From: an uncultured archaeon
GTDB taxonomy: Archaea; Asgardarchaeota; Lokiarchaeia; Sigyniarchaeales; SOKP01
Reading direction: 5' to 3'
Assembly: GCA_964583985.1 (NCBI GenBank)
Contig: CAZOYD010000030.1
Span: 1-39,678 of the forward strand
DNA length: 39,678 nucleotides
Within the stretch, counting starts at the first letter, position 1; the number at the start of each line of letters is the position of its first letter. Of the stretch, positions 18,647-23,661 are shown one piece after another. A model generated the notes under the pieces. The model worked only from the letters and a program-made list of their open reading frames with translations, had not been told where the DNA came from and ran no database searches. Both the position numbers and the translations under genes were made by a program.

Positions 18647-18859
18647 TTATTTGAAGTATTTAATCGCTAAGAGAATGTCGTCCTTTGTTATCTTCTTTCT
18701 TTTTGCATGTTTGGTTAGTCCTAATGCGGTTTTGGTGATTTTTTCAGCAGATTGACTCATCCAATCAACTAATTCATCAACTGCATCTCGAGCTACGATT
18801 AATGCACCGTTGTGTTTCATTAACCGTCTAATAGGACTCCAACTAATATATTCAGCCAT
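18647..18859 (-). CDS. Archaeal histone (HMf-like fold), 70 aa
   Basis: PIRRLMK...VARDAV...HAKRKKITKDDI histone-fold signature; GGAGG RBS upstream of ATG 18859 supports this start over 18880. Confidence 0.93.
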   Translation of the reverse strand: MAEYISWSPIRRLMKHNGALIVARDAVDELVDWMSQSAEKITKTALGLTKHAKRKKITKDDILLAIKYFK

Positions 18860-18928
18860 ACTGATCATTTTCCTCCACAATTATAATTTTTAATAATTTT
18901 GTTGTTATATAAGCTATGATCAACCATT

Positions 18929-19241: not shown

Positions 19242-19454
19242 TTATTTGAAGTATTTAATCGCTAAGAGAATGTCGTCCTTTGTTATCTTCTTTCTTTTTG
19301 CATGTTTGGTTAGTCCTAATGCGGTTTTGGTGATTTTTTCAGCAGATTGACTCATCCAATCAACTAATTCATCAACTGCATCTCTAGCAACGATTATTGC
19401 ACCATTGTGTTTCATTAACCGTCTAATAGGACTCCAACTTATATATTCAGCCAT
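19242..19454 (-). CDS. Archaeal histone, tandem paralog, 70 aa
   Basis: Identical to the neighbouring histone except one Leu/Ile change; same GGAGG RBS. Confidence 0.93.
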   Translation of the reverse strand: MAEYISWSPIRRLMKHNGAIIVARDAVDELVDWMSQSAEKITKTALGLTKHAKRKKITKDDILLAIKYFK

Positions 19455-19550
19455 ATTGATCGTTTTCCTCCACAATTATATTTTTAGATAATATTTTGTT
19501 GAAATTAATTATTTTTTAAGAGTTTGTTATATAGTTATACATCTTTTCGA

Positions 19551-19931: not shown

Positions 19932-20537
19932 TCACATTTCAGAGGTTGAGACACGATTGGTTTTTCGGGATCTTACTCCTAAAACAACAAATAATAACAC
20001 GTGAAGGATTGACCCAAATAAAATTCCATAAAATAGTTCAATAATACTTGCCATGGCAGTCAATCCCAAACCTATTAATACATACAATCCTAGTGGAATA
20101 TTTACTATTAAGCTGACGATCAATCCTGGATTATATCGCCTGAATCGAATGCTTGCAATAACATGAACAAATCCGTTAAAAGCAACAAGAGTCATTAGTA
20201 TCACCGGAAATATGATTGAAATGTTGCCTAAAACAATTAAGACCGGTGTTAGTATCCAGATTAACCCTATATTTATAATCAAAATCATTTTATCGGTCAA
20301 AACTTCGCGAGTGTTTTCTCCTCGAAGAAATATCTTGTTCATCTCCTCTTTGAATCCTCCAGGATACACGTATTCCTCGAATTGGTGGATCATGTAGAGG
20401 GGTAAGCTAAGCCAATACAACCATTCGAAACTCCCAATTGGTGCTTTTGAATTTAAGAATAGCAAGAGGAGGATAAAAATTGCTGCAATAAGTCCCGCTT
20501 TAGCCCAATATTCATAAAATAATTTCTGTTCACTCAT
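19932..20537 (-). CDS. HXXEE-domain membrane protein
   Basis: IHQFEEYVYPGGF, N...H and YNPGL motifs; multiple TM segments. Confidence 0.9.
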   Translation of the reverse strand: MSEQKLFYEYWAKAGLIAAIFILLLLFLNSKAPIGSFEWLYWLSLPLYMIHQFEEYVYPGGFKEEMNKIFLRGENTREVLTDKMILIINIGLIWILTPVLIVLGNISIIFPVILMTLVAFNGFVHVIASIRFRRYNPGLIVSLIVNIPLGLYVLIGLGLTAMASIIELFYGILFGSILHVLLFVVLGVRSRKTNRVSTSEM

Positions 20538-20645: not shown

Positions 20646-21638
20646 TTACTTCCATACAATTTGTGAGTTGTTGCACTGGAGGCAAGTAATTGCGACACCC
20701 TTTTGTGGCATGTATGATAGCGGAGCTCCACAATATTCACATTCGAGATTGCGAATTTGGTCTATTGAATCAATTATCCCATCGATTAACATTTGACTTG
20801 CGAATTCGTTTGCAACCTTGGAAAGAAGAGATATGAGGAGATGTGGATTTTTAGCGATTGCGATCCATTCTATCTTGTTTTGAACTATTTGTCCAATTAT
20901 CAATACTTCATCACTTGAAACTAGGTCTACGCCAAAATACCATGCTACTCGATTTTCCTTATTCATTGTGATTAGTTGAAAGTTTTGATTTTGTATGTTT
21001 TGACATAATTTGGAAAAAAAGAAGTCGGGATCAAATTGAGTTTTTATTCCAACCCCGATACTCTTAATGGCTCTTACGTTTTCAAGTGATTTGGAGAATG
21101 GAGAGATTTGGGAGCTTGGGACGATGCATTTTTCTATGGAAAGAGGAGTTAACATGATTAGGATTGGCTTTGAATCTAATGCGCGGACAAAATCTTTATT
21201 ATTTACAAAAGTCACGTAAGATCTAATTTCTCCTTCTCTTTCAAGATCCAAGGGAGATAAAAATATATTGACTTGATGATGGGATTCTGGAGTGATTTCT
21301 TCAAACTGAATCCTTACTTGCTTTTGCTCATCTTCTTCTGGGTTGAGAGGATCTAATATCATGTGGGGAGGATCACTTCTGATAAGATCTAAGAAAGCGG
21401 GAAATCTAATTTTGGTTTTTACTTCTTTTATTGGTGCTTTACTTTGATTGGCAATTAGCGTGGAATATCGATACATGCTTCCAAATGGTTTTAATTCATG
21501 GATGAGCTTAACTTTATCTTCTTGATCTATTTGTTCAAGAGAAATAACTCGTTTTAGCAGTCCTTTTGGACTCTTTTCATCCCGAAATGATACAAGATCG
21601 CTGATTTTTTCATCAGCGGGGTTTTTCTTGTCATTCAT
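20646..21638 (-). CDS. Hypothetical protein: putative coatomer/adaptin appendage-like domain plus C-terminal zinc ribbon
   Basis: Long ORF ending in CEYC...CLQC. The appendage assignment is a by-eye pattern resemblance only. Confidence 0.7.
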   Translation of the reverse strand: MNDKKNPADEKISDLVSFRDEKSPKGLLKRVISLEQIDQEDKVKLIHELKPFGSMYRYSTLIANQSKAPIKEVKTKIRFPAFLDLIRSDPPHMILDPLNPEEDEQKQVRIQFEEITPESHHQVNIFLSPLDLEREGEIRSYVTFVNNKDFVRALDSKPILIMLTPLSIEKCIVPSSQISPFSKSLENVRAIKSIGVGIKTQFDPDFFFSKLCQNIQNQNFQLITMNKENRVAWYFGVDLVSSDEVLIIGQIVQNKIEWIAIAKNPHLLISLLSKVANEFASQMLIDGIIDSIDQIRNLECEYCGAPLSYMPQKGVAITCLQCNNSQIVWK

Positions 21639-21767
21639 ATAATTTCTTCCGATTCACGCGAAAAATCGATTTTTATCGTTATAATATTGATATGAATGTA
21701 TTGATTTTTAATTTTTTATTTTATATCATCTTTTTTTATAAATGATCACTAATACTAGGTGATAGAA

Positions 21768-22466
21768 ATGGAAATTTTGAAAGATTTGGATGCAATGTTT
21801 GAAAGTGATACAATAAAACCAACTTTCGATCACGTTCATATCTTGCTTTCTTTATTAATATTTGAAAATCATCCACAAGGAATTGGTCGATATCGTTTAA
21901 AAGAAGAATTACTCATAGGCATGGGAACTGCAAGATCGTTGATCACTCGCTTGAAGGATAGAGTGGATTTCATTAGAGTTTCAGGAGGAAAAGACCAAAA
22001 TGATCGACCTACAAAACGATTAGGGCATGTTTTGACAGAAAAAGGAACAGCATTTCTTGAAAGAGTTAAGAAGAAAATCCCCCTATTAAAAAGGGGTGAT
22101 TTAAAAGTATTAAAAGATATAATTATCGAAGCGGACAGTAATTATCCTTATATTTGTGTTGTAAAACAAGGAGAGGCTAAAATTAAATATGGTATGGAAC
22201 AACGAGATGCAGCAATCAAGGTGAATGGCTCAGGTGCTACGTGTCTTGTTTATGATGGAAGCCATTTTGTATTTCCGGCATCTTCAAGCGTGAATGATCA
22301 AGATTTCATTGAGAAAGCAAATAAAAACATTGAAGATTATTTTAAAAATCTGATTTTTTCATCAAACAACACTTTAGAAAGAGGAGATGTGTTTATTATT
22401 GGTTTAGGGAATGAACCAAATAAAGCGAGATTAGCTTCCTTAAATGCAGCACTTACGTTAATTTGA
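21768..22466 (+). CDS. Archaeal winged-HTH protein (DUF2111/DUF4443-like)
   Basis: GIGRYRLKEELLIGMGTARSLITRL HTH; GMEQRDAAIKVNGSGAT signature; AGGTGA RBS at 21757-21762 favours ATG 21768. Confidence 0.75.
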   Translation: MEILKDLDAMFESDTIKPTFDHVHILLSLLIFENHPQGIGRYRLKEELLIGMGTARSLITRLKDRVDFIRVSGGKDQNDRPTKRLGHVLTEKGTAFLERVKKKIPLLKRGDLKVLKDIIIEADSNYPYICVVKQGEAKIKYGMEQRDAAIKVNGSGATCLVYDGSHFVFPASSSVNDQDFIEKANKNIEDYFKNLIFSSNNTLERGDVFIIGLGNEPNKARLASLNAALTLI

Positions 22467-22486: not shown

Positions 22487-23011
22487 ATGAAGAAACAGAA
22501 CGACATACAATTATTATTAGATCCGGAGACCCTTTTAGACCTAATAAAGTGTGTAGAAAATGCCTTCCCAAGTGAAGCGTGTGGTTTAATTTTTGGAAAT
22601 ATTTTAGAAATACCAAATGAACAACAAGAAGATGATTACTATTATCAATATGTTTGCAGAAATTTTCATTGTATCTCCCCTGATAAGAGTTCTTCAGTAT
22701 CTTTTTTGATCACAAATGAGGAACTCTTACACGATATAATATTTAATGAAACGCAAGCACTCGCTGATAATAATGAAATGAGATTAATCAGCGTTTTTCA
22801 TTCTCATCCAAAAGGAACCAGCCCTAGTTTAACTGATATGGATCAAATGAAATATCTGGATTATTTCAGTTCAATAAATCATAATTATGGAAATAAAGCA
22901 TTTAAGCATTTAATTTGGGTTATTATGGACGCGGTTAATCACAATTTGGATGGATATATTTATTTTGAAAGGGAAATCCAGCAAGTTAAAATTTTATCGA
23001 GCAAAATTTAG
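22487..23011 (+). CDS. JAB1/MPN+ (JAMM, M67 family) metalloprotease
   Basis: EACG plus FHSHP-x4-PSLTD gives a complete E...HxHx7Sx2D JAMM motif. Confidence 0.9.
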   Translation: MKKQNDIQLLLDPETLLDLIKCVENAFPSEACGLIFGNILEIPNEQQEDDYYYQYVCRNFHCISPDKSSSVSFLITNEELLHDIIFNETQALADNNEMRLISVFHSHPKGTSPSLTDMDQMKYLDYFSSINHNYGNKAFKHLIWVIMDAVNHNLDGYIYFEREIQQVKILSSKI

Positions 23012-23019
23012 GAGTAATT

Positions 23020-23661
23020 TTATTGAACTTGCTTGAATCCGTTTTTATCAATCGTACAGATTTGAATTTTATGACCTGAAGCGGAATCTCTTTCTTTTGA
23101 ACTTGATATCGCTGTTTTAATTAATTCAATTCCTTGAGCTATAGTTAGGTCAGGTTTCCAATCAGCTTCCAAAACTCCAAGAGAAAAGGGTGAACCACTT
23201 CCAAAGGATAGGAATTTGTCTTCTTCATAAAATGTACCGAGCAAATCTATCCCATATAATTCTCCTTTATTCTTTTTCAAGGAAAATCCCCCAACTATCA
23301 TCATTGCTAGGTAATATGATCGACCACTAAATAATATATTTCGAGTCACGTTAGCAATATATCTGGGTTCAGGCACTTCTTCTAATTCTACTTGTTTTAG
23401 CATGGAAAATGATTTTAATTGATTAACAATGTACTGACAATCAGCAACTCCCCCTGAAATTGTAGCACAAGTGAAATCATTAATTTGGAATAGTTTTTGA
23501 GCGGTCTTCGAAGCTACGTTATAACCTGCTGTGGCTTGGCTTTCTGTTCCTACCACGACAGCATCTTTAACTATCATTCCAACAGTGGTTGTACTTGTTT
23601 TAATCACGTGTTGTATGGTTTCTTCATCAACTTTTAGATTCTTTGCAATTTTTTCCATCAT
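23020..23661 (-). CDS. psmB: 20S proteasome beta subunit
   Basis: Propeptide then TTTVG; Glu17, Lys33, SGGVAD, GSGS and RDSASG motifs. Confidence 0.93.
   Translation of the reverse strand: MMEKIAKNLKVDEETIQHVIKTSTTTVGMIVKDAVVVGTESQATAGYNVASKTAQKLFQINDFTCATISGGVADCQYIVNQLKSFSMLKQVELEEVPEPRYIANVTRNILFSGRSYYLAMMIVGGFSLKKNKGELYGIDLLGTFYEEDKFLSFGSGSPFSLGVLEADWKPDLTIAQGIELIKTAISSSKERDSASGHKIQICTIDKNGFKQVQ

Follow-up and report, generated by a model that had tools for sequence, protein, structure and literature searches.

The stretch of DNA analysed here (the window; 39,678 nucleotides, contig CAZOYD010000030.1) comes from an uncultured archaeon of the Lokiarchaeia and carries, on its minus strand at positions 20646-21638, a gene whose 330-residue product is predicted to be a small, soluble protein with an ear-like fold and a C-terminal zinc ribbon. 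In eukaryotic vesicle-coat adaptors, the two-lobed ear domains serve as hubs of interaction. The reading that we favour, with a probability of about 60%, is that the protein is a soluble, free-standing ear plus zinc ribbon, paralogous to the ears of Asgard Vps28-C proteins, and that it acts as a docking hub, a function that we can only propose. Since ears have already been published for Asgard archaea, we regard it as a free-standing member, hitherto undescribed, of a class already known. An ear accompanied by a zinc ribbon alone would be the simplest form seen so far; nearly all members of one Lokiarchaeia-type family carry it, in a single copy, and this protein family is unannotated in every database searched.

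The gene and its predicted fold

The open reading frame at 20646-21638 is a real gene under selection, far beyond what chance would produce, because it has 57 near-length homologues (40-81% identity, each annotated as hypothetical), is found at 76 genomic loci and is matched in 72 of the 300 Asgard genomes searched with our narrow family profile, A1, at E<=1e-5, the setting used for all distribution counts. The homologues carry the names Promethearchaeota or Lokiarchaeota, and the gene's neighbours in the window include archaeal histones, a proteasome beta subunit, S8e and SRP19, as befits an Asgard archaeon; a search without length limit returned 65 representatives, the close relatives all measuring 324-354 residues. 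As the open frame comprises 335 codons in all, extending just five codons further upstream, no N-terminal domain is hidden there. An earlier reading of the sequence alone (the sequence-only reading) had described the product as a putative appendage lacking the solenoid trunk, and the short frame, the uniform length of the relatives and the lack of any solenoid gene in the window agree with this. The gene and the parts of its product are as follows.

20646..21638, minus strand: ear-plus-zinc-ribbon coding sequence, 330 residues plus stop, identified from the open reading frame list and homologues, with one copy in its own genome
21522..21638, minus strand: N-terminal tail, residues 1-39, predicted disordered (predicted local distance difference test score, pLDDT, 30-36), with invariant L15 and F18 ('LVxF')
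21129..21521, minus strand: predicted immunoglobulin (Ig)-like beta-sandwich lobe of nine strands, residues 40-170, holding the family's most conserved motif, TFVNNxDFVRALDS
20769..21128, minus strand: predicted linker helix plus platform lobe, residues 171-290, of beta-alpha-beta4-alpha (TBP/helix-grip) topology, with a conserved WYFG strand
20649..20756, minus strand: predicted C-terminal zinc ribbon, residues 295-330, CxxC-x15-CxxC, pLDDT 85-91

The full-length AlphaFold2 model, built template-free from a 36-sequence alignment (mean pLDDT 74.7), has a helix at residues 175-183 followed by a beta-alpha-beta4-alpha unit at 188-285 (pLDDT 86-95). The platform lobe thus consists of the linker helix, a five-strand sheet and two helices; it is TBP-like and is best matched by ear platforms. 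Modelled by itself from 67 sequences, the sandwich forms nine strands with a pLDDT of 91.2 and a predicted template-modelling score (pTM) of 0.82, and the most conserved motif, disordered in the full model, supplies its final strands. At the C-terminus, the four cysteines (C300-x2-C303-x15-C319-x2-C322) show no variation across 36 close homologues or across a set of 43 that reaches down to 15-25% identity, and AlphaFold2 predicts ribbon strands at 295-297, 316-318 and 325-327, which bears out the earlier assignment of the CEYC-x15-CLQC segment as a zinc ribbon; the best PDB sequence matches of the family profile are likewise zinc ribbons, LysW (0.018) and S27e (0.034). All peptide segments singled out by the sequence-only reading are present in the translation, where they fall on predicted strands and helices.

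When the whole model was compared with the PDB by Foldseek, the top match was a COPI chain (9qpq_H, E 2e-7), followed by the alpha ear of the adaptor protein (AP) complex AP-2, by gamma-COP, by the ear of beta2 and by subunits of the BBSome. All of these alignments take in both lobes and run over 240-320 columns; those with ears are collinear, over 240-289 columns. VIA-align placed adaptin/COPI ears in all of its best 16 rows, the weakest of them barely above the best generic fold, over an aligned range that includes the linker helix. Its closest known counterparts are the ears found in the adaptor complexes AP-2 (alpha and beta2) and AP-4 (beta) and in COPI (beta- and gamma-COP; PDB 1e42, 1w80, 2mj7, 9qpq_H and 1pzd/1r4x). 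The protein shares only 8-15% identity with them and differs in having no Pfam membership, no hinge and no alpha-solenoid trunk, an extra zinc ribbon at its C-terminus, and a sandwich whose matches are not specific to ears. Some weaker signals point in the same direction: the ear sandwich family Alpha_adaptinC2 (PF02883) gives sub-threshold matches in 18 of 43 family members (best E 0.0049), and among its protein-language-model features, clusters of eukaryotic alpha-adaptin ears come up at a score of 0.76, which serves as a lead only.

Several results weigh against an ear assignment. Searches of Pfam and NCBIfam, and phmmer against the PDB, returned zero matches for the 330-residue protein; the Pfam ear families PF02883, PF09066, PF02296 and PF08752 did not match it, and the Pfam platform models had zero matches across the genome even at E<=10. 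The pTM of the whole model is 0.53 and two-lobe superpositions give root-mean-square deviations of 8.6-15 Å, so the packing of the lobes is not confidently predicted. The sandwich alone gave a flat Foldseek list at E 1e-4 to 1e-3, with integrin, YcnI and cohesin among its entries and COPI at rank 9, the GGA2 GAE domain at 11 and the alpha ear at 50. Its VIA top 50 was led by pilins and cohesins (BBS9 GAE 11.2, mu2 homology domain 10.9, ArnB 10.7) and held no adaptin-ear sandwich. A profile search against PDB sequences with the broad family profile A2, which includes relatives bearing a PCI domain, likewise found only zinc ribbons and noise, with arrestin and the GGA2 GAE domain at E 0.4-0.5. 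Because the sandwich by itself matches generic Ig-like folds, the ear assignment is founded on the platform together with the domain order; judged from the models, the sandwich is compatible with an ear and not diagnostic of one. The ear-plus-platform fold put forward by the sequence-only reading, which had named AlphaFold and Foldseek among its checks, is thus supported by the whole model, with COPI and AP-2 appendages as best matches, but not by Pfam ear membership.

The generic sandwich would fit an explanation in which the ear likeness is a matter of shared fold only, the protein being a generic Ig domain joined to a helix-grip/TBP-like domain and a zinc ribbon, with a role in transcription or in binding a ligand or nucleic acid, alongside or under the DUF4443 regulator encoded next to it and near the histone genes. 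We consider this improbable, given that ears alone fill the best VIA rows with the ear-type linker helix inside the aligned range, that Foldseek aligns both lobes collinearly, and that homology ties the protein to the ears of Vps28-C proteins linked to the ESCRT (endosomal sorting complex required for transport) machinery. The GAE-plus-platform region of the BBSome subunits BBS2, BBS7 and BBS9 (PDB 6vbu) offers a further comparison: the protein has no beta-propeller or helical domain, and this region scores no better than generic sandwiches.

Paralogy and origin of the free ear

The same genome encodes a 791-residue paralogue on contig C9 (L087:3711-6086, minus strand), made up of a winged-helix array (DDRGK/UFL1/PCI), an Ig region that weakly matches BBS-GAE, a platform and Vps28-C. 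Profile A2 aligned with the ear region of this paralogue in hhalign at 98.9% probability (E 1.3e-17, 237 columns, residues 34-294 of our protein) and, used as a hidden Markov model, matched the C9 open reading frame at E 9.9e-24. The narrow profile A1 gave only a weak hhalign match (E 1.6e-3, probability 16%), so that the link to C9 depends on the addition of the PCI-bearing relatives. From these profile comparisons we identify the protein as a paralogue of the ear region in Asgard winged-helix/PCI-ear-Vps28-C proteins. Matches to Vps28-C (PF03997) occur in this genome on contigs C27 and C9 only. A third candidate, on contig C23, was set aside, as it holds only TPR repeats and an Ig-like sandwich.

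The architecture of the C9 paralogue is the one described for ESCRT-associated Asgard proteins that combine Vps28-C and an ear with longin, PCI or TPR domains (Makarova et al. 2024, 10.1101/2024.02.06.579148). That study also reported that the appendage region occurs complete, with its Ig and TBP parts, in several ESCRT systems of archaea, and an earlier one had listed the two Pfam subdomains of the ear in Asgard proteins, 'not fused to each other' (Eme et al. 2023, PMC10307638). Compared with the Asgard proteins of the PCI-appendage-Vps28-C type, with which it shares a homologous ear region, the form in the window has no PCI/winged-helix array, and a zinc ribbon takes the place of Vps28-C; hence it has no ESCRT-II docking module. 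A further counterpart, compared by description, is the euryarchaeal Meth_adaptin (e.g. WP_013898571.1), in which a zinc ribbon comes after an N-terminal domain and an Ig-plus-TBP appendage (Makarova et al. 2024, 10.1101/2024.02.06.579148); unlike Meth_adaptin genes, which lie in Vps4/ESCRT-III loci, the gene studied here lies outside such loci. No published description of the free ear-zinc-ribbon family was found in the literature covered, which takes in the article by Makarova et al. (2024) short of its supplementary tables.

Orthologues in a sister family of the same order are longer (386-429 residues) and begin with a PCI-type winged helix, which in the L079 orthologue reaches 27.4 bits against Pfam PCI (cut-off 22). 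More distant relatives are without exception Asgard proteins with a hypothetical annotation; in these, PCI or TPR domains stand ahead of the ear-zinc-ribbon unit. The N-terminal tail may be a vestige of the sister-family winged helix: MAFFT aligned it, with its L15 and F18, beneath the final PCI wing strand of the long relatives. This placement suggests that the free form arose from a PCI-ear-zinc-ribbon ancestor through PCI loss, a step that we infer from the alignment.

Two observations on the longer proteins may be added. One Asgard protein of 1258 residues (L085:2761-6537, minus strand, genome G039) ends in an ear-zinc-ribbon unit, preceded by a GIFT/ABC_transp_aux-like N-terminus, UFL1/DDRGK-like winged helices, a PCI domain and a DUF11 Ig domain. 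In addition, the C-terminal 190 residues of the C9 paralogue weakly match the NCBIfam family 'Sel_Asgard, putative selenocysteine system protein' (E 1.8e-8, far below cut-off), and on account of this match the family name may in fact describe a platform-plus-Vps28-C-like module.

Genomic neighbourhood and a possible docking role

The gene is separated by a short intergenic region from a conserved block on its upstream side.

21639..21758, no strand: shared divergent intergenic region, 120 bp, with two back-to-back AT-rich TATA-like boxes
21759..22466, plus strand: DUF4443/PH0730-like winged-helix protein, the divergent neighbour (Pfam DUF4443 E 4e-18; PDB 2p8t E 9.5e-5)
22487..23011, plus strand: JAB/MPN+ metalloprotease, deubiquitinase/desampylase-like (Pfam Prok-JAB E 8e-11; weak NCBIfam desampylase match)
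23020..23661, minus strand: proteasome beta subunit (Pfam Proteasome E 1e-45), part of the conserved block

Among 75 loci, DUF4443 is the divergent neighbour of the ear gene in 73; beyond it come JAB/MPN+ in 68 and proteasome beta (PsmB) in 65; S8e and HypA follow with 61 each, SRP19 with 60, and a histone gene lies downstream in 64. The divergent spacer has a median length of 122 bp and measures 86-140 bp in 64 of 73 loci. Two boxes in it are conserved: a TATAACGATA-type one, some 35 bp upstream of the start codon of the ear gene, and a TTTATAAAAAAA one that faces DUF4443; a search of this intergenic region for an operator-like element found the TATA-like boxes only. The pairing with DUF4443 is retained in the sister-family locus L080, where identity to our protein has fallen to 23%. 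In L078 and L079 the PCI-bearing orthologue is directly divergent from JAB, and in L080 and L081 JAB is not adjacent. DUF4443 itself is present in 55 of 80 Asgard genomes, with different neighbours elsewhere, and in genus g4 of the host's own family the DUF4443-JAB-PsmB block is retained with an unrelated DUF711 gene in the ear slot (a 434-residue frame that we tested as a diverged ear and rejected). Given the wide occurrence of DUF4443, the g4 block without an ear and the housekeeping genes within the block, the linkage is conserved without being obligatory, and vertical synteny may account for most of it.

The JAB protein has 174 residues and retains the E...HSHP-x6-S-x2-D metalloprotease motif. 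In most family loci its gene sits directly upstream of the gene for proteasome beta, with which it converges.

Beyond the gene, its predicted fold, its paralogy and its synteny, we propose a mechanism and candidate partners for the docking hub. In the proposed arrangement, an Ig-like sandwich and a TBP-like platform, placed as in the AP/COPI large-subunit appendage, are followed by the C4 zinc ribbon; the platform sheet and the sandwich would bind short motifs or partner proteins, with the zinc ribbon providing a second attachment point. Sequence conservation marks the W233-Y234-F235 strand as only a candidate for an aromatic site of the kind that takes up DPF/W, FxDxF or helical motifs on the platform or sandwich of ears. 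Possible partners are the divergent DUF4443 winged-helix protein, the JAB protease and ESCRT/ubiquitin components.

The same neighbourhood allows for a different role, in which the protein would be a receptor or adaptor of a ubiquitin-like/proteasome pathway, working with the adjacent JAB (MPN+) and proteasome beta products; the PCI domain of the sister family would then pair with MPN much as PCI does in the proteasome lid, CSN and eIF3. The frequency of the DUF4443-JAB-PsmB arrangement beside the ear gene, the JAB-facing position of the PCI-bearing orthologue in L078/L079, and the ubiquitin/ESCRT-type parts of the paralogue (UFL1/DDRGK-like winged helices, PCI, Vps28-C) all speak for such a role. 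Against it, the block persists in g4 with DUF711 in the ear slot, it includes housekeeping genes (S8e, SRP19, HypA), so that it could be explained by vertical synteny inside a single order, JAB is not next to the orthologue in L080/L081, and the window's form has no PCI domain. Weighing these points, we consider a proteasome-pathway role unlikely. Less likely again is the more specific idea that the ear-zinc-ribbon protein and its PCI-bearing orthologues serve an Asgard PCI-MPN module, acting with JAB and the proteasome, as the subunit that docks substrates or partners. Were it true, the module would be an archaeal forerunner of lid/CSN-type receptor logic with an adaptin-type ear as recogniser, and the origins of coat ears would be linked to ubiquitin-like proteolysis and not to vesicle coats.

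A role as a true vesicle-coat or trafficking component, in which a HEAT-repeat trunk, a small GTPase or a membrane coat would recruit the free ear in trans, would be in keeping with the ear fold itself, with the other AP/COPI-type domains encoded in Asgard genomes (Eme et al. 2023, PMC10307638) and with HEAT-repeat open reading frames on contig C117 that weakly match Adaptin_N. However, the survey of the neighbourhood for longin, small GTPase or solenoid partners, by which the sequence-only reading had proposed to check a vesicle-coat adaptor role, found none in the window, nor any ESCRT or ubiquitin gene. The Adaptin_N matches in the genome are generic HEAT repeats, repeatedly the same stretch, and control genomes match likewise; no convincing adaptin trunk and no sigma-type subunit were found in the genome, which does encode Vps28; and the full-length family is limited to one order. 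A vesicle-coat role is thus unsupported, and we regard recruitment to a coat as improbable. The finding does not show coats in these archaea; archaeal relatives of the ear nevertheless bear on how the trafficking machinery was assembled. For the docking hub that we favour, the small size and solubility of the protein make it convenient for testing what an archaeal ear binds.

Distribution and further observations

The host's family in the Genome Taxonomy Database (GTDB) accounts for most of the A1 matches, with 59 of its 67 genomes positive and none of the four of genus g4, and all seven genomes of the sister family match as well. Only 5 of 225 other Asgard genomes did so, and there the match covers the platform plus zinc ribbon part only, inside open reading frames of up to ~1260 codons. 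Among the Asgard genomes searched, the full-length family is therefore restricted to a single order.

Three genomes of the same genus contain extra frames of ~110 codons (G161:C45:9632-9955, G071:C62:72-461 and G227:C233:250-576) whose match is limited to the end of the platform and the zinc ribbon (profile positions ~206-330). Two of the three sit shortly downstream of the full-length gene, and stop codons occur in some copies; they look like tandem partial duplicates or decaying copies.

Downstream of the ear gene in the window, an HXXEE-family membrane protein gene (19932-20537, minus strand) stands between it and the histone genes; of 75 related loci just 1 has such a gene, and it therefore resembles a local insertion into a gene order that is otherwise fixed. 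Two nearly identical tandem genes for 77-residue archaeal histones follow (18647-18880 and 19242-19475, minus strand), and since most related loci have one histone match, a recent duplication is suggested here.

The sister-family locus L080 (G209:C1:1302468-1319064) belongs to a complete, single-contig genome of 4.4 Mb, in which a 422-residue PCI-ear-zinc-ribbon orthologue is divergent from DUF4443 and adjoins a long TFIIB-like gene. If this genome comes from a cultured strain, it would offer a practical experimental system.
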